From positions 1 through 43,534 of the forward strand of contig JBDRLL010000040.1 in the NCBI GenBank assembly GCA_043813075.1: 43,534 nt of DNA, given 5' to 3'. This DNA comes from Candidatus Altiarchaeota archaeon (GTDB taxonomy: Archaea; Altiarchaeota; Altiarchaeia; IMC4; SCGC-AAA252-I15). Below are positions 7,801 to 38,432 of this stretch, one piece after another. A program made the position numbers and the translations under genes. Under the pieces are notes generated by a model, which searched no databases, was not told the DNA's origin, and saw only the letters and a program-made list of their open reading frames with translations. How positions within the stretch are numbered: position 1 is the stretch's first letter; each line of letters starts with the position of its first letter.

Positions 7801-10800
7801 ACAGGTCTCCGCGAGCGTCACCGTCAGCATTTTCCTGGTTCGGGTTGTAGTTGTCTACACAGTTGTCGCACGCGTCTCCCACTCCGTCACTGCATGGGCT
7901 TTGTGAATATCCTCCTGGACAATTCCACTTGTCAACGTCCTCCTGACCTGCATTAGCTACGGTCGGGCAGTTGTCGCCGCACTCCGTGTCGATGTCATCA
8001 GCATCCGGGTCTGTCCCATCGTGTGAAATGTCCGCGTCAGTGGTCTGACTGCACTCGTATGTGCCGCCCACGTTACACTGGCTGTCAAACAAGGCCCTGT
8101 AGTCCCATGTATCAGGGTTTCCGTCGGGGGTCCACTCGCACGTGGCTATCTCGGGCGCATCATGGTCGTTGCAGTCTTCATTATCCTGGCAGCAGGTGCT
8201 GCCTAACGGGCCTGTTTGTGTGGCGCAGTCCGGGTCAGCGCAGTCCACGAGCCCGTCACAATCGTTGTCGTTGCCGTCAACGCATGACGTCTCGGTTCCG
8301 CCGCAGTCAGAGTCCACTCCGTCAATACAGGTGTCTCCGTCGTTGTCGAAACTGTCATCGCAAGAGTCACCACACTGGCCGGTATTCTCAGTGGCCGCGC
8401 AGTATGGTTCGTTCAGGAAGTTGCTGCACCATGGGTCCGCGCAGTCTATCTGCTGGTTGCCCATCTGGTTCTGACCGTCCCTGCAGACGCATCCGAAGTC
8501 TCCTCCAAGTAGGTTGAAGGAGTCATCTGCCGCATCGGCCTTTCCGTCGCAGTCGTTGTCTACCTCATCGAAGCACATGCAGTCCTGTTCCTTAACGCCC
8601 GGGTTTACCGCCGGCTCGTCGTCGTCGCAGTCGTCTCCACCGTTCTTCGGTGAATTGAATCTTGCGCTCTGGCAGTAGCCGTCGCCGTCAACATCTCCTG
8701 GATTATCGTCAGGGCACGTGTCGCACACGTCACCCATATCGTCGCCGTCAGCATCAGCCTGGTCTTTAACGCAGTTGCCCTGGTTGATTAATCCACAGTC
8801 GTTGTTCGAGTTGCAGGGAGCTCCCTTCTTCCAGTCTCCGATTCCGCCGCCGTCGCAGGTCCCCTTGCTGGGGCCGTTGGGCGTGTTAACGCAGTTGTCG
8901 CATACGTCTCCTATCCCGTCTCCGTCTGCGTCAGCCTGGTCATTGTTTGCATCGTCTGGGCAGTTGTCGCATACGTCTCCTATCCCGTCTCCGTCTGCGT
9001 CAGCCTGGTCTTCGTTATCGGTTGTCGGGCAGTTGTCGCACGCGTCTCCGTGTGAGTCGCTGTCTGAATTGGGTTGCTCGCTAGTCATCTGGCATGTGCC
9101 GCAGTGCGTGTGCCATTGCCAGTTGCTGCCGCAACAGTGTCTGTGCCTTATGCAACAGTCGCTGTCCTCGTCGCACGCATCACCCACCTTGTATCCCGTG
9201 CATGTTCCTGACGTCACCAGCGGGTTGTAGATGTCTGGGCAGTTGTCGCCGCAGTCTGTTGCCACACCGTCTGCGTCAGGGTCGTTGCCGTCATGCGAGA
9301 TTGCTCCCGCTGTAGTACAATCGTAGACTCCACCACCCACGTCGACACACTGGCTGTTGAATTCCGCCCTGTAATCCCATGTTAACGGGTTGTCGTCAGG
9401 GCTGTTATCGCAGGTTGCTATCTCGTCCTCGTCGTTGCCGTCACAGTTGTCGTCGTTTGGCGTGCTCAGGCACTCGTTGTTCGCATCGCACGTGTCGTCG
9501 GTACAGTCGTAGCCGTCGTCGCATAATCCGTCGTCTCCGTTGCAGCATACGCCACTATCTGGGCCTATCTCGCCTTCGCAGTCTTCGTCGGCGCAGTCTA
9601 TGTCGCCATCGCAGTCGTTGTCGATGCCGTCAGTGCATACCTCGTCTATGCACGGGTCGTCTCCTACCACGCAGCCGTCGAAGAAGTTGGCGTTCGGTAT
9701 CAGGTCGCCGTTAGCCAGCCTCCTGTCTCTTACCTGGCAGACAAGCGTGTTTTCCGAATCCCTTAGTGGGCTTATGGCGACGCCCAACTCGTCTCTGGGG
9801 TCTGGAAGAGCGCAGCCTTCATTAGCCTGCTCCACAGTCCCAGGAATCTGATTTCCATTCAGAGTACACCCGATTATGTCATTGTCTACCGAAAGATATA
9901 ACATGTAGTTGTGGTACTCGTCACCATCGAAGGTACATGTCACAGTGCTATCTGTCGCAAGCGGCCAGAAGGTGCTGTACTGGTAGTTGCAGCCCCACAT
10001 GTCGTAGTACTCGTTTCCTAATGGGAGTTCAGTGTCCCACTCGCACAGGTCGGCTTCAACACACGGACCCACGACATCACCGGACTGGTCTTCACTTAGG
10101 CAGTCTGGCGTGCAGCCGTCGCCTGGGTCGTTGTTGCCGTCGTCGCACTCTTCATCGCCTTCCTGCACTCCGTCGCCGCAAATAATGCAAGCGTCATCTC
10201 CATCGCAGTCACTGTCATCACAGTCGACATACGTATCACAGTCGTTGTCTGTGCCGTCATCGCAGACTTCGTCTGTCGCACAACAGTATATGTCTACTGA
10301 TAGGCTGCCTGAGTTGTCGTGAATACATGCATTGTTGTCGCAAGCATTGCCCCATGTCCCATACCAGTCGCTTAATAAAACGTTTACATTTCCTGTCGTA
10401 GTTGCATCATACACAAATCCATACTCGTGATTATCGTTATAGCATCCCCAGTCATAATCCTGGCCATTCAGGTGTATGTCCAGTATGGACCCATCCAGGT
10501 CTGTCCTGAGCGTGCCCCAACTATCTCTAGTGCAGTATTCCGCGTCCGCAATCTTGCTGCTCTGAGAGCTATCGTACCTGTATGTGCCTGTGGCTTTCAG
10601 CAGGTAGCTCATGCCTGAGTATAGTATGCTTGTGCTGTCCTCGCCGTCGGCGTCTGATGCGCCGAGCGATATAGTCTCCATAAGCGTTTCAGTCTTTCCG
10701 TCAGGGCAGACAGGCATCTCACATAAAGAGTCTGCGTCGCACTCGTCGTCTGAGCAGTCTATGAGCCCGTCGCAGTCGTTGTCTACCGTGTCGCAGCATG

Positions 10801-31481: not shown

Positions 31482-32666
31482 ATGTTCTTAGGGAGGAAGC
31501 CACTACTCGCCTTGATAACACTATCACTTACTGTGCTGGTCATATCATTCCTCCTATACTTTCCGTTCGGATTTTTCGCAGGCCTGATGCCGTCACACCC
31601 TAGGGTGGATCGAAATGATGATGGTGAGACTCATTCCCCCCAGATAATCCTTCCCGACGGGTTTGAGATACACGTCTACGCTGAGAACGTGACTGGCGCC
31701 AGGTCGATGACCCTAAGCCCCTCCGGAATATTATATGTCGGGACGAGGGGTGAGGGTAAAGTATACGCAATCATCGACGACGACAAGGACAATAAGGCCG
31801 ATCAAGTATTTACTGTCGCTGAGGGATTGAACTCCCCCAACGGCCTCGCTTTCCTGGACGGCTCACTCTACGTGGCTGAGATAAGCAGGATAATCGCATA
31901 CGAGGATTTGGAATCCGATCTGGCCAATCCGCCGGAGCCTGTTGCCGTCCGCGACGACTTCCCGGATGACGAGAGCCACGGCTGGAAGTTCATGCGGTTG
32001 GGGCCTGATGGGTTGCTCTACATTCCGGTGGGCGCTCCCTGCAACATTTGCGAGATGCCTGATGAGAGATACTCGACGATAATGCGCATGTCTCCTGGTG
32101 GGGTTGGGCTGGAGGTGTATGCATCCGGAGTCAGGAATACTGTGGGATTCGACTGGCATCCTGGGACCAGTGAATTATGGTTCACAGACAACGGCCGCGA
32201 CTGGCTTGGCGATGACATGCCTCCAGACGAGTTGAATCACGCTCCAGAGATGGGACTGCATTTTGGCTTCCCCTACTGTCATGGGGGGAACATAACTGAC
32301 TTGGACTTCGGTTCTGGGGTTAACTGTAGCGAATACAGGAAGCCTGCGCAAGAGTTGGGGGCTCACGTAGCCTCCCTGGGCATGCGCTTCTACACCGGCG
32401 GCATGTTCCCTGAACGCTACAGGAGGGGGATTTTCATAGCTGAACACGGCTCCTGGAACAGCAGGACTCCCGTCGGATACAGGGTGACGTTCGTGGAGCT
32501 TGACGGCAGCACTCCCGTATCCTACGAGCCCTTCGCTGAAGGCTGGCTTAACGGCGGCACAGCATGGGGCAGGCCGGTCGACGTCGAGGTCATGCCGGAT
32601 GGCTCACTGCTCGTTTCCGACGACAAGGCCGGCATGATATACAGGATAACATATGCTGGCGGATAA
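31482..32666 (+). CDS. Membrane-anchored PQQ-dependent glucose/sorbosone dehydrogenase family protein
   Basis: N-terminal TM; LPDGFEI, HGWK...GPDG.LY..VGAPCN, GVRNTVGFDWHP, DNGRD, AEHGSWN, GRPVDV...DGSLLVSDD. Confidence 0.9.
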   Translation: MFLGRKPLLALITLSLTVLVISFLLYFPFGFFAGLMPSHPRVDRNDDGETHSPQIILPDGFEIHVYAENVTGARSMTLSPSGILYVGTRGEGKVYAIIDDDKDNKADQVFTVAEGLNSPNGLAFLDGSLYVAEISRIIAYEDLESDLANPPEPVAVRDDFPDDESHGWKFMRLGPDGLLYIPVGAPCNICEMPDERYSTIMRMSPGGVGLEVYASGVRNTVGFDWHPGTSELWFTDNGRDWLGDDMPPDELNHAPEMGLHFGFPYCHGGNITDLDFGSGVNCSEYRKPAQELGAHVASLGMRFYTGGMFPERYRRGIFIAEHGSWNSRTPVGYRVTFVELDGSTPVSYEPFAEGWLNGGTAWGRPVDVEVMPDGSLLVSDDKAGMIYRITYAGG

Positions 32667-32671
32667 GTGCC

Positions 32672-32721
32672 TGTTTCAGTTAATGCAACAGGTGTTTCAC
32701 TAAAAATTATACCCTGTTTCA
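32672..32721 (+). promoter_or_regulatory. Four-box operator/promoter, copy 1 (TGTTTCA-N5-TGCAACA-GG-TGTTTCA-N15-TGTTTCA)
   Basis: Boxes at 32672, 32684 (inverted), 32693 and 32715. A BRE/TATA-like AAAAATTATA lies in the 15-nt spacer. SD GAGGTGA at 32737-43. Confidence 0.8.
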
Positions 32722-32749
32722 GTCATTGATTTACCCGAGGTGATATGAA

Positions 32750-33238
32750 ATGAATGCCAGAAGACTATTCGTCTTTGGTTTAGCGGGCCTTCTTTTGGTC
32801 GGCATGGTTGCTTCAGCCAACGCTTTCTTCGGGAGCCAGTCTCAGGGTAAGCGGGGGATGTTCAGGAATCAGCTGTCTGAAAAGTACGGTCTGCCGGAGA
32901 ACGGTGAGGGATGCGACTTCAAGACCACTGTCATGGAAGACCTTGGTCTTGGGGAGGACGCCACTCAAGAGGAGGTGAGGGAGGCATTGTTCGCCAGGAG
33001 ACTGGATCAGCTCGGCCTGACCGAGGACTCCACGATACGCGAGTTAAGGGATGCTCTGGATGCTGAGCGTGAAGAAAGGCTTCAGGAGAAGATGTCTGCG
33101 TTAAGGGAGAAGTGCGGTCTTCCAGAGGACGCTTCAGAGGATGAAGTAAAGGAATGCATGAAAGAGCGCGTTAGGCGTGGTCCTGGATTCCGCGGCGGAA
33201 AGGCGGGTTTCATGGGCAATGGACTGGGCATCATCTGA
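32750..33238 (+). CDS. Secreted acidic protein with four (L)GLxExA[ST]xxEh helical repeats
   Basis: Signal peptide (MNARRLFVFGLAGLLLVGMVASANA); repeats YGLPENGE, LGLGEDATQEEV, LGLTEDSTIREL, CGLPEDASEDEV; Gly/Arg/Met/Phe-rich ends. Confidence 0.8.
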   Translation: MNARRLFVFGLAGLLLVGMVASANAFFGSQSQGKRGMFRNQLSEKYGLPENGEGCDFKTTVMEDLGLGEDATQEEVREALFARRLDQLGLTEDSTIRELRDALDAEREERLQEKMSALREKCGLPEDASEDEVKECMKERVRRGPGFRGGKAGFMGNGLGII

Positions 33239-33270
33239 TGCCTGCTCCGGTGGGAGATCATCCTCCCACC
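33227..33270 (+). terminator. Tandem hairpins at the 3' end of the secreted-protein gene (terminator, attenuator or processing site)
   Basis: GGCATC-ATCT-GATGCC over the stop codon, then GGTGGGAG-ATCATC-CTCCCACC (8-bp stem). Only a short CTCTT tail follows. Confidence 0.5.
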
Positions 33271-33295
33271 CTCTTACATTAAACGGGGTGTTGAA

Positions 33296-33403
33296 ATGAA
33301 TCCGGAAACGCTGGTTATGTGGGCTCTAACAGGCTTTGGATTATGGATAATATCAGACTACAAGGCGCGTAAGAGGGTTGCAGCAGGCTTCCAGGAGGCT
33401 TAA
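33296..33403 (+). CDS. Unannotated 35-aa single-pass membrane peptide
   Basis: MNPETLVMWALTGFGLWIISDYKARKRVAAGFQEA*. GGGGTG SD 5 nt upstream; hydrophobic helix followed by KARKR. Below the ORF-track size cut-off. Confidence 0.65.
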   Translation: MNPETLVMWALTGFGLWIISDYKARKRVAAGFQEA

Positions 33404-33455
33404 ACGCCTTATAAGCTATTAAACGATATAGAGTCAATACATTGAGGTGAATCAA

Positions 33456-33731
33456 ATGGTTGTGAATGCGACGTTGAAGGGGACGATGGCTGCCGCAAAG
33501 TTTGCAGGCCGCGGCGACCTAATGTTCAAGAAGAGCCTTTTCCTGGGGTTCATACCCCCACACATACTCTGGAATATAGGTGTTATAATCGTTGTAGCCC
33601 TCATATTCTACTGGCTTACGAGAGGTTCCAAGTCACATGACAGTTCGCTCGAAATGCTTAAGAAAAGATATGTCAGCGGCGAGATAGACAAGGACACGTT
33701 CCTCAAGATGAAGGAAGACATAGCCGATTGA
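33456..33731 (+). CDS. Small membrane protein with a C-terminal SHOCT domain
   Basis: One TM (ILWNIGVIIVVALIFYWL) followed by SLEMLKKRYVSGEIDKDTFLKMKEDI (SHOCT consensus). ATG 33456 follows GAGGTGA; TATA-like CTTATAAG at ~33408. Confidence 0.85.
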   Translation: MVVNATLKGTMAAAKFAGRGDLMFKKSLFLGFIPPHILWNIGVIIVVALIFYWLTRGSKSHDSSLEMLKKRYVSGEIDKDTFLKMKEDIAD

Positions 33732-34144
33732 TCATGGAAGTATCTGAGACACGCCTTGGAATCGCCTTTCTGGCGGTATTCGCCTTGGGCATAATGCTGT
33801 CCATACTAAACGGATACTACATAGAGGATACTGGCTCCTCAATACCCCTTATGGTCTACGCGGTCACAGCAGCGGCCATGGCGGTCGGAGCCTTGGTGAT
33901 ACTCCTCTTCCAGTGGCGTGTCAGCAAACAGCAGCTCCATAGGATACTAAAAGTACTGCCAGAGGAAGAGAGGGTGATAATAGGCCTTCTCGTTGACGAG
34001 AAGAAGATGGAGCAGACATATCTGGTGGCTGAGAGCGGGCTCTCGAAGGTTAAGGTATCCCGTGTGCTCTCAAAGCTGGAGCAGAGGGGTATAATAGAGA
34101 AGAAACCGCTTGGAAACACGAATCTAGTCAAGCTAAAGATATAA
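33728..34144 (+). CDS. Membrane-tethered winged-HTH transcriptional regulator (COG2512-like)
   Basis: Two TM helices, then LPEEERVIIGLL...EQTYLVAESGLSKVKVSRVLSKLEQRGIIEKKPLGNTNLVKL (MarR-like wHTH). Overlaps the SHOCT gene stop. Confidence 0.85.
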   Translation: MIMEVSETRLGIAFLAVFALGIMLSILNGYYIEDTGSSIPLMVYAVTAAAMAVGALVILLFQWRVSKQQLHRILKVLPEEERVIIGLLVDEKKMEQTYLVAESGLSKVKVSRVLSKLEQRGIIEKKPLGNTNLVKLKI

Positions 34145-34153
34145 AAAACAAGG

Positions 34154-34203
34154 AGTTTCAATATCTGCAACAGGTGTTTCACTCAAAGATATAGGGTGTT
34201 TCA
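34154..34203 (+). promoter_or_regulatory. Four-box operator/promoter, copy 2 (AGTTTCA-N5-TGCAACA-GG-TGTTTCA-N15-TGTTTCA)
   Basis: Boxes at 34154, 34166 (inverted), 34175 and 34197, with the same spacing as copy 1 and an identical 18-nt core TGCAACAGGTGTTTCACT. TATA-like AAAGATATA in the spacer. Confidence 0.8.
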
Positions 34204-34233
34204 ATAAATCAATATGGTAAGGTGAATTCGATT

Positions 34234-35880
34234 ATGGAATGGAAAACAATGAATTTCGGGATAATGCTTTTGGTTATAGTTTGTTTAACGACTGTGGTGG
34301 GTGCGCAGTCCAGTAGCGACCTGGCGCCAACCAACATGATAGTGGACTTCGACTCCACGACAACCGACTCAAGCCTGGGTGCTGGAGACAGCGGGATAAT
34401 GAACCTGGTGATAGAGAACACTGGCGGCAGGCGGGCTGAGAACGTGCAGATATACATCCCCAGCACTGCCAGGATAAACATGGACAAGCGGTTCTACATC
34501 GGCAGGCTTGACGCTAGCGAGTCAAAGACCCTCCCCCTCATGATAAGAGTGAATAAGGATGCTACGACCGGTTTGACTGCAGTGAACGTGAGGATAAGCT
34601 TTGACGGATACAAGTCTGACGGCACTTTAGAGCGGAACCAGCTGACTACATGGGACGTCCCACTTAGGATATACGGGAAACCCTCCTTCCAGATAGTCCC
34701 CTCCAAGACCACCTACTTCAAGGACACTCTGGACGACCTTACGCTGAAGGGCACGCTACTGGATCCTGTCAAAGACCTGGAGGCAACACTATCCTCATCA
34801 TGCATCACAGTCATCGGATCATCAAGAACGCATGTCGGAGACCTCAATAAGGGCCAGGACTTCGAGTTGAAATACCCTGTGAAGCCGGTATCATCAGGCG
34901 CATGCACTGCAAGCATAATACTAGAGTACACTGACGAGTCAGGGACCTCTACCACAGACAACATGTCCATCGGACTAAACATAGAGGATGCTGGAGTCGA
35001 CTTCAAGGTAGTCAACATAAGCTACAACCCCACAGGCCCTGGAGAGACGGTACTGGTCAAATTGGGGCTTAAGAACGTGGGTAAGGCGGATTCACGGGAT
35101 ACTACGGTAAGCCTCTCGCTTTCAGAACCGTTTGTTCCCGTCGACACGCCGGAGAAATACCTTGGCACAGTGCCAGCAAGCCAGTACGTTGAAGCGGATT
35201 TCGCCATCTCAGTAGGATGGGATGCTGAGATAAAGGCATACGCGATACCCATGACCATAACATATAAGGTCGGCGGTGCCGTATACAATGTGAGTAAGAG
35301 CATCGGCATAGACGTTGGCGGGTCCGTGATACTGGAGATAATAAGCATAGACACGAGCAGGGGGAACGTCCGCATCGAGGTTGCCAACATCGGCACCAGA
35401 ACCGCAGACGGCGTCAAGGCAACCCTCGATATACCCCAGACGGCCTCCAACCGGACTGGCATGCGTCCAGGCAGGAACGACTCAAACAGGAGCATGGGCG
35501 GCTCAGCCACAGACTCACCAAATGATTCTACAATGCCTTTCGCGCGTGGGAACTTAACCCGCACGGGCGGTGACACCCAGAGTTTCGTGTCCTACAAGTC
35601 AGACATCAAGTCAAACAAGCAGACCACATTCACATTCGAGACCACTTACACGGGGCCTGCCACACTAACCCTCGAGTACACTGGATTGAACAACAATCGT
35701 GTCACAGAGACCGAGCGCCTCAATCTGGGCGGCTCTGGGGGAGCATCCTCAGGCTTCAGGATGTCAAGGACAACCGATACCACTGGAACCAGCACCACAA
35801 CCTACCTGATATATGCTCTGGTAGTGGTCGTGCTCTTGTTTGTCGCACGCAAGTTCTACCACGGCATAAAATCCGGCTAG
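34234..35880 (+). CDS. COG1361 S-layer-domain (tandem Ig/CARDB-like) protein with a C-terminal TM anchor
   Basis: Signal peptide; repeated beta-sandwich units (IENTGGRRAENV, LKNVGKADSRDT, VANIGTRTADGV); Thr/Gly linker, TM and basic tail; next to ABC genes as is typical for COG1361. ATG 34234 follows AGGTGA (ORF-track start is 34222). Confidence 0.8.
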   Translation: MEWKTMNFGIMLLVIVCLTTVVGAQSSSDLAPTNMIVDFDSTTTDSSLGAGDSGIMNLVIENTGGRRAENVQIYIPSTARINMDKRFYIGRLDASESKTLPLMIRVNKDATTGLTAVNVRISFDGYKSDGTLERNQLTTWDVPLRIYGKPSFQIVPSKTTYFKDTLDDLTLKGTLLDPVKDLEATLSSSCITVIGSSRTHVGDLNKGQDFELKYPVKPVSSGACTASIILEYTDESGTSTTDNMSIGLNIEDAGVDFKVVNISYNPTGPGETVLVKLGLKNVGKADSRDTTVSLSLSEPFVPVDTPEKYLGTVPASQYVEADFAISVGWDAEIKAYAIPMTITYKVGGAVYNVSKSIGIDVGGSVILEIISIDTSRGNVRIEVANIGTRTADGVKATLDIPQTASNRTGMRPGRNDSNRSMGGSATDSPNDSTMPFARGNLTRTGGDTQSFVSYKSDIKSNKQTTFTFETTYTGPATLTLEYTGLNNNRVTETERLNLGGSGGASSGFRMSRTTDTTGTSTTTYLIYALVVVVLLFVARKFYHGIKSG

Positions 35881-35884
35881 CAAA

Positions 35885-37072
35885 ATGCTTGACATAGCGT
35901 TTAAGAACGTGTTCCGCCAGAAGGTGAGGAGCCTCCTAACGGTACTTGGGATAGCGATGGGCATAGGCCTCATACTCGCCCTAGGATCGATTGGGGCTGG
36001 GTTGAACAAGCAGCTTGACGACACGTTCGGCCAGATGGGCGCGGTAGTGGACGTGAGGGCGCAAGACAATGACGAGGGCATAAGCGACGACGTTATAAAC
36101 GGCATAGCAGACATGCCTAACGTGGAGAGTGTCGTCCCAGTGCGCACATACCGCATCACCCGTGGAGGCGGCTTCGGCGGGCCAGGCCGGATGATGAGGG
36201 GCTTCATGCCGTCTGGCAGCGGGAGTTCCGCAGTCCAGATAATGTTCACGGCAGTGAATCCTGAGGACCTGGATTACCTGGTTGGCGAGGAGATAATCGC
36301 TGAGGAAGGCCGTAAGCTGGACGGCTCCGACGACGGCGGCAACGTGGTGTTGATGGGTTTTAACGCCGCTGAATCAAACATCCTGAACCTCGGCGACGAG
36401 ATAGAGTACAAGCGCGAGGAGGACAACGTATCTGAAAGCTACTATTTCGAGGTGGTCGGCATACTGGAGGAGACAGGGGACTCGAGCATAGACGACTCCA
36501 CATACGTTCCTTTGAAGACGATGCAGGAGATAGAGGAGGACTATACGATAACCAGCCTGAAGGTGCAGGTCACCAACATAGACCTGGTGGAGGAGGTCAC
36601 TAACGACATAAACGACCAGTACGACGACGAAGTGCGGGCACAGTCTTTCGTGACCATTGTCAGGCAGATAGAGTCCACGCTATCCACAGTCCAGATGGCA
36701 GTCTACGGCATAGGCGCTATATCAGTCATCGTTGGGGGCATAGGCATAATGAACACGATGATAATGAGCGTCATGGAACGCAGGCGTGAGATAGGCGTCA
36801 TGAAGGCTATAGGCGCCACGACGACCACAGTACTAACACAGGTCCTCGAGGAGTCGGCGATACTGAGCATGATCGGCGGCCTGGCTGGGCTTGGGCTAGG
36901 CTACATGTCAATGACCCTGATAAACTCCTACACATCGTTCGTGACCATAATGACTGGCGACCTGATAGCCATCGGACTGGGCTTCTCCCTAATCCTGGGC
37001 ATGGGCGCTGGCATATACCCTGCATGGTCCGCATCACAGCTGGACCCGATAGAGGTGTTGCGCTATGAGTAA
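35885..37072 (+). CDS. ABC transporter permease, MacB/FtsX/LolE family
   Basis: RSLLTVLGIAMGI, large extracytoplasmic domain, GGIGIMNTMIMSVMERRREIGVMKAIGA, YPAWSASQLDPIEVLRYE. Confidence 0.95.
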   Translation: MLDIAFKNVFRQKVRSLLTVLGIAMGIGLILALGSIGAGLNKQLDDTFGQMGAVVDVRAQDNDEGISDDVINGIADMPNVESVVPVRTYRITRGGGFGGPGRMMRGFMPSGSGSSAVQIMFTAVNPEDLDYLVGEEIIAEEGRKLDGSDDGGNVVLMGFNAAESNILNLGDEIEYKREEDNVSESYYFEVVGILEETGDSSIDDSTYVPLKTMQEIEEDYTITSLKVQVTNIDLVEEVTNDINDQYDDEVRAQSFVTIVRQIESTLSTVQMAVYGIGAISVIVGGIGIMNTMIMSVMERRREIGVMKAIGATTTTVLTQVLEESAILSMIGGLAGLGLGYMSMTLINSYTSFVTIMTGDLIAIGLGFSLILGMGAGIYPAWSASQLDPIEVLRYE

Positions 37073-37742
37073 GGGAGAGATACGGTGCGTGGACCTGGTG
37101 AAGACGTACAATCCTGGCAAGCCGAACCAGTGCCATGCGTTGAACGGCGTGAACCTGACGATAAGCATCGGCAACTACGTCAGCATCATCGGACCATCAG
37201 GTTCAGGGAAGTCGACGCTCCTCAACATGATAAGCTGCCTAGACACGCCCACAAAAGGCGAAGTATACATCGAGGACGTCGGCATAAGCAAGCTGAACGG
37301 GCTCCAGAAGGCCAGGCTGAGGCGTGAGAAGCTGGGCTTCATATTCCAGCAGTTCAACCTCATACCCACGATGAGCGCGTTCGAGAACGTGGAACTGCCC
37401 ATGAGGTTCAAGGGAATACCCTACAACGAAAGGAAGAAGAGGGTGGCTGACATACTCGAACTAGTCGAACTCTCCGACAAAAAGCACAACCGGCCGTCAC
37501 AGATGAGCGGCGGCCAGCAGCAGCGGGTTGCGGTAGCCAGGAGTCTGGCCAACGACCCGCAGATAATAATGGCTGACGAGCCGACCGGCAACCTGGACCA
37601 GAAGACGGGCAACCTCATAATGGACCTGCTGAAGAGGCTTAACAAGGAAGAGGGCAAGACGCTCGTCGTAGTCACCCACGACCAGAAGATAGCGAAGAAC
37701 GCCCCCCGGACCATCAAGATGGTGGACGGCAAGATAGTGTAG
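37065..37742 (+). CDS. ABC transporter ATP-binding protein, LolD/MacB-NBD family
   Basis: Walker A GPSGSGKST, GFIFQQFNL, MSGGQQQRVAVAR, ADEPTGNLD, VTHD. Confidence 0.96.
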   Translation: MSKGEIRCVDLVKTYNPGKPNQCHALNGVNLTISIGNYVSIIGPSGSGKSTLLNMISCLDTPTKGEVYIEDVGISKLNGLQKARLRREKLGFIFQQFNLIPTMSAFENVELPMRFKGIPYNERKKRVADILELVELSDKKHNRPSQMSGGQQQRVAVARSLANDPQIIMADEPTGNLDQKTGNLIMDLLKRLNKEEGKTLVVVTHDQKIAKNAPRTIKMVDGKIV

Positions 37743-37955: not shown

Positions 37956-38432
37956 ATGAAGTCAATGAAATACTTCCTGGCTTTGACGGTGGTTTTAATG
38001 CTAGTATCGAGTGCACTAGCATTGTCAGTCGAAGCCAAGAAAAAGAAGGGCGGTAAGGCGACTGTCATGAACAAATCCAGTAAAGCAGCCAAGAATGCGG
38101 CAGCCAAGAAGGTGGCAGCCAAGAAGGCAGCGGCCAAGAAGGGCGTGAAGTTCTCTAGCACCGAGCTAAAGTCGATAAAGGCAAGCCTCGGCCTGTCTGC
38201 CAGGGCTTCCCAGGGTGATGTGAACAAGGCTGTTAAGAGTTGGGCTGGCAAGAGGAAGGAGCTCATATCCTTTGCCAACAACAAGAAAAAGAAGATCGAC
38301 AACACAAACATCGGCAGAATAAGGAACGAGCTGGGCCTACCATCAAGCGCCTCACGAGAATGGGCTAAGCAGTCGCTGGACAGGTGGAAGTCCACCAACA
38401 AGCTGATGGTGAAATACGCCAACAACATGTAG
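37956..38432 (+). CDS. Secreted, very basic Lys/Ala-rich protein with two LGLxxxASxxx helical repeats
   Basis: Signal peptide; AAKK repeats; SLGLSARASQGDVNKAV and ELGLPSSASREWAKQSL. GAGGT SD and TTTTTAAG TATA-like element upstream. Confidence 0.75.
   Translation: MKSMKYFLALTVVLMLVSSALALSVEAKKKKGGKATVMNKSSKAAKNAAAKKVAAKKAAAKKGVKFSSTELKSIKASLGLSARASQGDVNKAVKSWAGKRKELISFANNKKKKIDNTNIGRIRNELGLPSSASREWAKQSLDRWKSTNKLMVKYANNM

Follow-up and report, generated by a model that had tools for sequence, protein, structure and literature searches.

What are two copies of a four-box DNA element doing in a gene cluster of an uncultivated archaeon, and which protein reads them? The window, by which we mean the whole analysed stretch of 43,534 nucleotides (nt), is the forward strand of contig JBDRLL010000040.1 (assembly GCA_043813075.1) from a Candidatus Altiarchaeota archaeon, and coordinates given without a contig or locus name refer to it. 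A 49-bp element occurs on its + strand at 32673-32721 and again at 34155-34203. Between the two copies lies the gene for a 136-residue protein in which an N-terminal transmembrane (TM) hairpin is followed by a winged helix-turn-helix (wHTH) of the DUF7343 family. Comparative sequence analysis makes it fairly likely that the element is the regulated archaeal promoter and operator of this membrane-tethered protein and that it serves a regulon of three transcription units; a repressive effect at rest is proposed more tentatively.

Reading of the sequence from 32400 to 34400 placed both operator copies exactly where the first-pass annotation of this DNA had put them. The boxes of operator/promoter 1 (32672..32721) are TGTTTCA (32672-32678), TGCAACA (32684-32690), TGTTTCA (32693-32699) and TGTTTCA (32715-32721), while those of operator/promoter 2 (34154..34203) are AGTTTCA (34154-34160), TGCAACA (34166-34172), TGTTTCA (34175-34181) and TGTTTCA (34197-34203). 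Common to both is the pattern GTTTCA-N5-TGCAACAGG-TGTTTCA-(AAA/TATA-like)-TGTTTCA. The start-to-start spacing of the GTTTCA boxes is 21 and 22 bp at both sites, the values claimed previously, and this spacing places the three co-oriented boxes on one face of the helix. Box 3 is followed by CT and then by a tract resembling a transcription factor B (TFB) recognition element (BRE) and a TATA box. At site 1 this tract is AAA plus TTATA (32702-32711, AAAAATTATA); at site 2 it is AAA plus GATATA (34185-34193, with GATATA at 34188-34193) within CAAAGATATA. The start codons downstream are ATG 32750, of a secreted protein, for site 1 and ATG 34234, of a COG1361-like gene, for site 2. The gene just 5' of site 1 (31482-32666, + strand), whose product is a beta-propeller of the glucose/sorbosone dehydrogenase type (GSDH, DUF7133) with a membrane anchor, stops 6 nt 5' of box 1; its neighbourhood with the motif is not kept in relatives.

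The element is highly specific to these two positions. Only sites 1 and 2 matched the 29-base core pattern in the window with up to 3 mismatches, and none of 100 shuffles contained any match. In the whole genome from which the window comes (G000; 1.80 Mb, 41 contigs, 89% complete; G, C and L numbers are our handles for genomes, contigs and loci), the pattern GTTTCA-N14-16-GTTTCA-N14-16-GTTTCA occurred nowhere else. A weight matrix spanning 51 positions, built from 50 sites of other genomes, gave 66.8 bits to site 1 and 56.0 bits to site 2, and the next best score among 3.59 million positions was 0.2 bits. The size of this gap suggests that, within the limit set by 89% completeness, the regulon in G000 consists of these two promoters. 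A copy of the 16-base core with one mismatch (TGCAACAGGTTTTTCA) lies at G000:C17:21302-21317 and obtained no score with the full matrix. The shuffles and the genome-wide scans with pattern and matrix rule out a chance match.

When 61 species genomes of the phylum were scanned with GTTTCA-N5-TG-N8-GTTTCA-N16-GTTTCA (up to 2 mismatches), 63 matches were obtained in 30 genomes, at 1-4 per genome, and the same pattern reversed gave no match in the 61 genomes. With so few sites per genome the element is not the site of a global regulator, and the widespread occurrence before unrelated genes that would have told against the first-pass annotation was not seen. A recent local duplication is likewise ruled out, since the element is kept in 29 other genomes while its spacers diverge; the earlier view that selection rather than simple duplication explains the pair gains from this conservation.

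Presence of the motif followed presence of the regulator. Full-length orthologs of the wHTH protein were found in many relatives at 61-79% identity, and among the 60 relatives the motif was present in all 27 that carry a close ortholog (at least 61% identity) but in only 2 of the 33 that do not, as expected from the co-occurrence proposed in the first-pass annotation. In the two exceptions (G047 and G048, 60% and 75% complete, respectively) the contigs break at the very point where the regulator gene lies in the congener G037: G047:C10 begins at the second ABC gene, which in G037 comes after the wHTH gene, and G048:C135 stops just past the secreted-protein gene that precedes the SHOCT-wHTH pair.

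Four genomes that possess distant full-length orthologs only (44-52% identity; G053, G054, G017 and G059) failed the fixed pattern. In G053 and G054, GTTTCA boxes nevertheless stand at 21 and 42 bp before an operon of (secreted protein)-SHOCT-wHTH. The G017 contig starts 14 nt before a GTTTCG box, which is 26 nt ahead of the first gene of the operon, and in G059 a listing of box positions showed no comparable boxes. Beyond these, in a metagenome-assembled genome (MAG) labelled Methanosarcinales (50% identity; L088) four GTTTCA boxes with spacings of 21/20/22 bp lie ahead of the SHOCT-wHTH operon, and a MAG labelled Woesearchaeota has GAAAC-TA-GTTTC and more GTTTC-like words after the gene. The diverged architectures of G053, G054 and L088 are missed by a pattern of fixed spacing and were found by eye or from the box listing. 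Across the distant orthologs (44-58% identity) the recognition helix (SKVKVSR..SKLE) and the wing (KK.LGNTN) are nearly invariant.

To define the targets, genes were mapped in G000 and, over regions of about 16 kb holding the regulator or a remote motif match, in 23 relatives, which gave 53 sites (2 own, 51 foreign, the latter sharing the architecture of site 1). This tally leaves out the matches in G045, G046, G050 and G052 and one match with 2 mismatches (L060, G015:C163). All 53 sites were upstream of, and co-oriented with, the next gene, and 49 stood before one of three units. The end of box 4 lay mostly 27-46 nt 5' of a start codon having a GAGGTGA-like Shine-Dalgarno sequence. Unit A consists of the genes for a 35-amino-acid (aa) peptide (not always present), the SHOCT protein and the wHTH protein; unit B comprises homologs of a 162-aa secreted protein; and unit C is a COG1361-MacB-ABC (ATP-binding cassette) operon, sometimes headed by a small open reading frame (ORF) that is of lipobox type in some relatives. 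Unit C was the target at 16 sites, unit A at 12 and unit B at 11. At 6 sites, as in the window, B was followed by A in one apparent operon; at 2 another small secreted protein preceded A; B was followed by C at 1 site, and a B-like gene with a SHOCT paralog stood behind 1 more. The remaining 4 sites preceded small proteins, secreted or of the membrane, that could be assigned to no unit.

The order of the units is B-A-C in the genus of the window and A-B-C in G012, G013, G022, G023 and G027, and in G008, G019 and G010 units B and/or C are on other contigs with the motif still in front. When genes were chosen by protein homology alone, GTTTCA was enriched over background in the 150 nt upstream by 24-fold for the unit B secreted protein, 12.6-fold for SHOCT and 11-fold for COG1361, and none of the corresponding regions of the internal genes MacB, ABC and wHTH held two or more GTTTCA boxes. 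Both targets named in the first-pass annotation, the secreted protein and the COG1361-MacB-ABC operon, therefore recur behind the motif in many genomes; its two-promoter regulon missed a third unit, the SHOCT-wHTH operon itself, which in the window sits behind the secreted-protein gene and site 1. We regard it as very probable that the element is a selected cis-regulatory promoter element of a three-unit regulon.

The 53 aligned sites gave the consensus t-GTTTCA-yTTTy-TG-yw-AC-rG-n-TGTTTCA-nnn-aaa-n-aTAt-nn-cc-TGTTTCA. Beyond the searched positions, conservation extended to the T-tract that follows box 1, to the AC of box 2 (A in 44 and C in 48 of the 52 distinct sites), to the T ahead of both box 3 and box 4, and to the TA within the TATA-like word. 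The 25 nt upstream and the sequence past box 4 carried no information content. Box 2 is a degenerate inverted half-site (TGyWACRG) that matches the reverse complement at 4 of 6 positions (TGnnAC); it reads TGTTAC in 14 of the 52 main operators, and one site (G001) has the perfect palindrome TGAAACAGCTGTTTCA. Boxes 3 and 4 are equally well kept, each being TGTTTCA in 41/52 distinct sites. The AAA tract that precedes the TATA element is rather well conserved; the TATA-like words vary (GATATA, ACTTAT, GGTTAT, GAATAA).

Counted from the respective start codon, the TATA-like word begins at -43 in one window site and at -45 in the other, and the genome-wide peak of such words, for 303 starts defined by a Shine-Dalgarno sequence, is at -51 to -42. 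The position of the word and its conservation lead us to infer that the AAA/TATA stretch serves as the promoter's BRE/TATA. The central imperfect palindrome and the TATA-like element between the last two boxes, both described in the earlier reading of this DNA, are thus kept across the sites of relatives, and with the TATA-like element and AAA tract conserved inside it the motif amounts to a whole regulated promoter. Box 3 would abut the BRE, box 4 would fall between TATA and a start some 10 nt beyond it, with boxes 1 and 2 upstream. In three relatives (L046 site 8388, L049 site 912 and L056 site 4550) hairpin-like sequences, some with T-runs, were noted between box 4 and the start codon.

RNA folding of the two copies gave z-scores against shuffles of -0.81 and +0.20. 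Box 3 is invariant while positions 13/14 in box 2 vary freely, which means that there is no base-pair covariation. The lack of covariation together with folds no better than those of shuffles favours protein-DNA recognition over an RNA hairpin, and RNA structure was rejected on these grounds as the nature of the element.

The candidate for the recognizing protein is encoded at 33734..34144 (+), and the evidence on it comes from Pfam, AlphaFold2, Foldseek and the co-occurrence above. It matches DUF7343 (PF24034) with 53.3 bits (cut-off 27.6; E 2.5e-14) and MarR_2 with 29.4 bits (cut-off 27; E 9e-7), and falls below the cut-off for MarR (PF01047; 20.6 bits, cut-off 24.6). Hydropathy showed hydrophobic segments at residues 3-30 and 36-64. 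An AlphaFold2 model made with 18 orthologs (mean predicted local distance difference test, pLDDT, 86.3) shows two long helices (5-33 and 39-74) with a short loop between them, followed by a wHTH at 77-134 that is composed of a helix (77-89), a strand, a helix (94-101), the recognition helix (105-117) and a beta-hairpin wing (121-134). The loop between the TM helices is only about 5-12 residues and the protein ends at the wing. Foldseek searches with the wHTH found MarR-family and ArsR-family structures, some of them DNA-bound, at E 2e-4 to 4e-3; the only solved relatives by sequence were SigF region 4 (E 4e-4) and an Lrs14-like protein (E 0.0027). The likeness to MarR and ArsR extends to the fold of the wHTH core only. 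The dimer helices of the MarR type are absent, since the wing is not followed by a C-terminal helix and the helices at the N-terminus are those of the TM hairpin. Listed homologs all carry PF24034, under database names such as 'hypothetical', 'uncharacterized membrane protein' or a generic wHTH/MarR.

The outside loop is conserved (NGYYIEDTGSSxP), and the TM hairpin and loop (N26, G27, T33, G34, P38, Y42) are conserved as strongly as the DNA-binding domain, which suggests a role for the membrane part beyond anchoring. With a predicted DNA-binding domain and at least one predicted TM region, the regulator falls within the transmembrane transcription regulators (TTRs) as the survey in PMC10269533 defines them; that survey reports such regulators as frequent among archaea, with about 4 per genome.

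Two smaller proteins accompany the regulator. The gene at 33456..33731 (+) encodes, on the evidence of Pfam, hydropathy and alignment, a single-TM protein (hydrophobic segment 27-56) with a putative cytoplasmic C-terminal SHOCT domain. The SHOCT match (PF09851) scored 25.4 bits against a cut-off of 27, with E 1.1e-5 over 25/28 profile positions, and the motif LKKRYxxGEIDxETF was present in 18/18 aligned homologs, among which the TM segment is conserved as well. This gene is always directly 5' of the wHTH gene, often overlapping its start, and the pair was found in 22 loci as well as in the distant orthologs. A complex prediction for the wHTH and SHOCT proteins returned a score of 0.00 and was given no weight either way. 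Both proteins are present between the two sites as the first-pass annotation had described them. The 35-aa membrane peptide that it also listed (33296..33403, +; a hydrophobic core followed by KARKR) has homologs in four other loci (L031, L038, L035 and L044) although its core falls under the threshold for 19-residue hydropathy; it is a conserved small protein and a candidate membrane partner.

An indication that the wHTH of this family may set the specificity of the boxes came from paralogs. Several relatives have paralogs of the tandem-fused 2TM-wHTH type (30-39% identity), whose recognition helices are altered. In 5 of 6 paralog loci, three coding-strand TGTTAC boxes spaced 22 and 31 or 41 bp stand before the paralog's own gene (L109, L110, L111, L113 and L027, from G004, G012, G003 and G006), and three paralog loci contain no other TGTTAC words in 4.5-5.5 kb. 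An altered helix combined with altered boxes before the same gene is what would be expected if members of the family were autoregulators whose wHTH determines specificity. With six loci this evidence is anecdotal, but it is independent of the main data. Taken with the evidence above, the wHTH encoded at 33734-34144 is probably the protein that binds the boxes.

How might such a protein act on such a promoter? In the mechanism that we propose, the AAA/TATA-like core is bracketed by boxes for the DUF7343 wHTH. One dimer would occupy the central quasi-palindrome formed by box 3 and box 2, and further copies would occupy boxes 1 and 4. The regulator would be held in the membrane by its two-helix hairpin, probably in complex with the TM-SHOCT protein and, where present, the 35-aa peptide, and would oligomerise over the phased boxes at the membrane, where all target products are inserted anyway. 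With box 3 at the BRE-like tract and box 4 between TATA and the presumed start, full occupancy would block TFB and RNA polymerase and so repress. A membrane or envelope cue, which might reach the regulator via its hairpin loop, its SHOCT partner or the transporter, would then change occupancy such that all units are induced, with negative autoregulation. A concentration-dependent dual mode would also be possible; Ss-LrpB reportedly works in a dual mode with several phased sites. The sign of regulation is the weakest step of the proposal, and net repression in the resting state, rather than activation, is tentative, our estimate for it being a little short of even.

Several observations weigh against this proposal or limit the evidence for it. 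The co-occurrence is with the entire gene cluster, and by itself this does not identify the wHTH as the binder. The genomes are related MAGs rather than independent samples, and because the sites were picked by pattern, part of the conservation at the 20 searched positions follows from the search itself. Gene maps came from a crude longest-ORF picker and from blastp against the window proteins, and several first ORFs were mis-called. The G015:C163 match left out of the tally looks like chance, and the 4 sites before small proteins have no unit assignment. In the window itself the regulator has no site of its own, and autoregulation here requires read-through past a hairpin at 33249-33270. As to the sign, ArnR/ArnR1 (PMC6396743) and TFB-RF1 (PMC5937170) are presented in those accounts as activators bound 5' of the BRE, which is where boxes 1-3 lie.

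This last point leads to the alternative that survives best, namely that binder and regulon are the same but the regulator is an activator. Sitting on boxes 1-3, just ahead of a mediocre BRE/TATA, it would recruit TFB and the TATA-binding protein (TBP), box 4 would only tune or position the complex, autoregulation would be positive and an envelope cue would switch the system on. The location of boxes 1-3 is that of archaeal activator sites and recalls the TFB-RF1 palindrome just upstream of a weak BRE, as portrayed in PMC5937170; ArnR and ArnR1 are, in the description in PMC6396743, membrane-bound activators that need two boxes. The variable TATA-like elements are also as expected of promoters that need help. 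Against activation, box 4 is kept as well as box 3 and lies between TATA and the presumed start, where archaeal repressors typically bind, and the AAA tract before TATA is fairly well kept. We consider activation unlikely, though it is the most serious competitor of the repressor proposal.

Less probable still, and in our view improbable, is that another factor, either a soluble regulator or a specialised TFB or TBP paralog, binds the boxes while the wHTH has a different role or different targets. The association of the motif with the whole cluster would fit such a factor. However, the wHTH protein is the sole protein with a DNA-binding domain in the cluster and the sole one travelling with the motif; its own operon stands behind the motif at 21/53 sites (A, B followed by A, other secreted protein followed by A, and the B-like/SHOCT paralog pair); a near-invariant recognition helix goes together with invariant boxes; and the paralog with an altered helix has altered boxes before its own gene. 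That the element is a transcribed RNA structure, or a boundary or recombination site of mobile cassettes, is scarcely credible: the variable unit order, the element at the 5' end of each unit and the quasi-palindrome might suggest it, but besides the folds and the absence of compensatory changes, every copy of the element points the same way as its gene, keeps a fixed distance to the start codon and has a TATA-like word at the usual position, a genome has only 1-4 of them, and the gene maps show neither an integrase nor terminal repeats.

The product of the gene behind site 1 (unit B; 32750..33238, +) is a secreted protein of 162 aa with a signal peptide, a Gly-rich stretch and three LGLxEDATxEEVREA repeats. 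Its AlphaFold2 model has a helical core at 60-145 with pLDDT of about 88-94. It reached no Pfam or NCBIfam family above threshold and no PDB fold match at E<=0.001 in Foldseek; sub-threshold matches among 14 homologs were to Mu-like_Pro (9/14, best E 0.0016) and DnaJ (3/14). The 'chaperone-like' character given to it in the first-pass annotation is therefore without support, and from these results an identity as a Spy/CpxP-like chaperone gains no support and loses none. A hairpin with a perfect 8-bp stem and a 6-nt loop (GGTGGGAG-ATCATC-CTCCCACC; 33249..33270, +) begins 11 nt past the stop of this gene and is 5' of the 35-aa ORF, where it could attenuate read-through into the regulator genes.

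Extra operators were noted in one relative (L048, G024:C13) at 9373 and 10357 (motif-forward, reverse-complemented relative to the stored locus), with TGTTTCT as box 4. One stands before a second secreted-repeat gene with a SHOCT paralog that lacks a wHTH, and the other before the gene for a Gly-rich secreted protein of 190 aa. No site at up to 3 mismatches was found for the canonical secreted-protein/SHOCT/wHTH operon of G024.

Unit C of the window begins with a COG1361-like surface protein (34234..35880, +) with CARDB and NPCBM_assoc domains, a signal peptide and a C-terminal TM anchor, whose orthologs behind the motif in relatives show 46-61% identity. Next is an ABC permease of the MacB/LolC type (FtsX fold; 35885..37072, +) with an extracytoplasmic MacB_PCD domain (MacB_PCD 88.6 bits, E 9e-25; FtsX 71.9 bits, E 6e-20), and then a LolD/MacB-like ABC ATPase (37065..37742, +; ABC_tran 126 bits, E 2e-36) whose gene overlaps that of the permease by 8 nt. 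Pfam thus agrees with the gene content listed in the first-pass annotation (COG1361, MacB permease, LolD-like ATPase). A permease with a separate ATPase fits the MacB/LolCDE-type (type VII) ABC transporters, but the NCBIfam cut-offs for LolCDE equivalogs were not reached (lolCE 75.6 against 362; LolD 236.6 against 307.75), and the 'S-layer/lipoprotein-handling' function once ascribed to the transporter is speculation.

In five relatives a small protein with a lipobox-like N-terminus (LVSGC, LVAGC, CCGC and ISGC, for example) is the first gene after the unit-C operator, directly before COG1361-MacB-ABC (L032 1279-1890, L038 11465-11887, L041 8417-8845, L050 8503-8859 and L058 6530-6856, motif-forward, with L032 and L041 reverse-complemented relative to the stored locus); the operon of the window is without such a gene. 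Several relatives also have a second ABC ATPase, 28-34% identical to that of the window, together with a protein of about 249 aa, beside the regulator or after unit C (L038 8420-9969, L053 8956-10490, L046 13042-14600 and L104 42-1576, motif-forward, with L053 and L046 reverse-complemented relative to the stored locus). This pair is absent from the window locus. Right after the ABC operon of the window, 37956-38432 (+) encodes a second small secreted protein of 158 aa, rich in Lys and Ala, whose repeats LGLSARAS and LGLPSSAS recall the LGLxEDAT of the 162-aa protein; it has no operator before it, as judged by the absence of a matrix match.

Kinase-free membrane one-component regulators have been described in archaea before, as the accounts of ArnR/ArnR1 (PMC6396743) and the survey in PMC10269533 indicate. 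The kind of system is known, and it is this family, together with its operator and regulon, that appears to be undescribed. No relevant paper on COG2512, DUF7343 or this locus was found, supplementary files aside (the lists of PMC10269533 may include members); nor was anything relevant on Altiarchaeota promoters or regulators among the papers listed, and none of the COG1361 papers found concerned this operon. In Haloferax under silver stress an unrelated SHOCT membrane protein and a COG1361 protein are induced, according to PMC10694973; we gave this no weight.

ArnR and ArnR1 of Sulfolobus acidocaldarius, which by the account in PMC6396743 control archaellum and pilus genes, resemble the present regulator as kinase-free HTH proteins with two TM segments that act on surface genes through two promoter boxes and form multimers. 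By the same account ArnR has an N-terminal HTH, a HAMP/sensor region and a C-terminal TM part, is an activator, and has boxes that are inverted repeats 5' of the BRE, while the Altiarchaeota regulator has an N-terminal TM hairpin, a DUF7343/MarR-like wHTH, four boxes around TATA and a SHOCT partner. Pfam and NCBIfam searches gave no HAMP match and no sequence relationship to ArnR.

TFB-RF1 (PF1088) of Pyrococcus furiosus, as described in PMC5937170, likewise has a small conserved regulon, made up of its own two-gene operon and a putative ABC exporter operon, and a palindromic site at a fixed distance from BRE/TATA. It is a BRE-recruiting activator with a single 13-nt palindrome (TCTGAANTTCAGA) 5' of the BRE (PMC5937170). 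The system described here differs in motif and protein family, in its membrane anchor, in phased direct repeats of which one lies past TATA, and in a MacB-type transporter that stands behind a COG1361 protein.

Among bacterial proteins, ToxR/ToxS, TcpP/TcpH and CadC also bind DNA from the membrane without a kinase, and ToxS and TcpH are small membrane accessory proteins comparable to the SHOCT protein and 35-aa peptide, on the descriptions in PMC10269533 and PMC11323476. ToxR, TcpP and CadC have an N-terminal OmpR-type wHTH, one TM segment and a periplasmic sensor and are not DUF7343 homologs. BcrR of Enterococcus is said to control an ABC transporter operon; it reportedly has an XRE-type HTH and four TM helices and is not a DUF7343 homolog. 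The comparison 'ToxR/CadC-like' made in the first-pass annotation holds as an analogy only, since the regulator has no OmpR-type domain (no Trans_reg_C match among 16 Pfam families at E<=0.1), the reverse topology with the wHTH C-terminal rather than N-terminal, and no periplasmic sensor domain. Unlike the bacterial transmembrane regulators, it would also work on the archaeal promoter machinery of TBP and TFB.

A further parallel is offered by the HAAS-PadR-like dyads (PSP/Lia), in which a membrane-proximal helical partner is coupled to a wHTH and which PMC11237479 proposes as an alternative to two-component signalling of membrane stress; it also proposes that SHOCT-like domains assemble sub-membrane complexes. 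In those dyads the PadR-type wHTH is soluble and the partner is HAAS (PMC11237479), whereas here the wHTH is membrane-anchored and the partner is a TM-SHOCT protein. The cluster has no PspA, PspC or Toastrack genes. BceRS-BceAB of Firmicutes combines a transporter of the MacB/FtsX fold with a sensor that has a minimal loop between two TM segments, and relies on a histidine kinase and response regulator. By analogy, the minimal loop and the co-regulated MacB/FtsX-fold transporter suggest that the transporter itself could be the sensor.

Extended further, these parallels would make the cluster a dedicated kinase-free envelope-stress circuit in Altiarchaeota and in some MAGs labelled Woesearchaeota and Methanosarcinales. 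The hairpin-wHTH, the SHOCT protein and the micro-peptide would read the state of the envelope or that of their own MacB-type transporter, which would serve as a flux sensor as in Bce systems, TATA would be clamped by phased half-sites, and the output would be Lol-like, with a lipobox protein, a COG1361 surface protein and a MacB/LolD transporter that handles surface or lipidated proteins. We offer this extension as speculation and hold it to be distinctly unlikely in its full form. A Lol-like output would, if true, be notable in the lineage of the window, which is reported to have a double membrane, and the circuit would be the first defined archaeal envelope-stress regulon with an operator.

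Little is known of how archaea sense envelope damage, and nothing of gene regulation in Altiarchaeota. The system is defined to a degree that is unusual in an uncultivated archaeal phylum. It provides a compact test case, comprising a 136-residue regulator, its partner, a 49-bp operator and a three-unit regulon of secreted and membrane proteins, all of it phylum-wide, and the paralog supplies a natural swap of specificity between GTTTCA and TGTTAC. For the DUF7343 family, both a function and a recognition motif may thus be assignable by comparative genomics alone.

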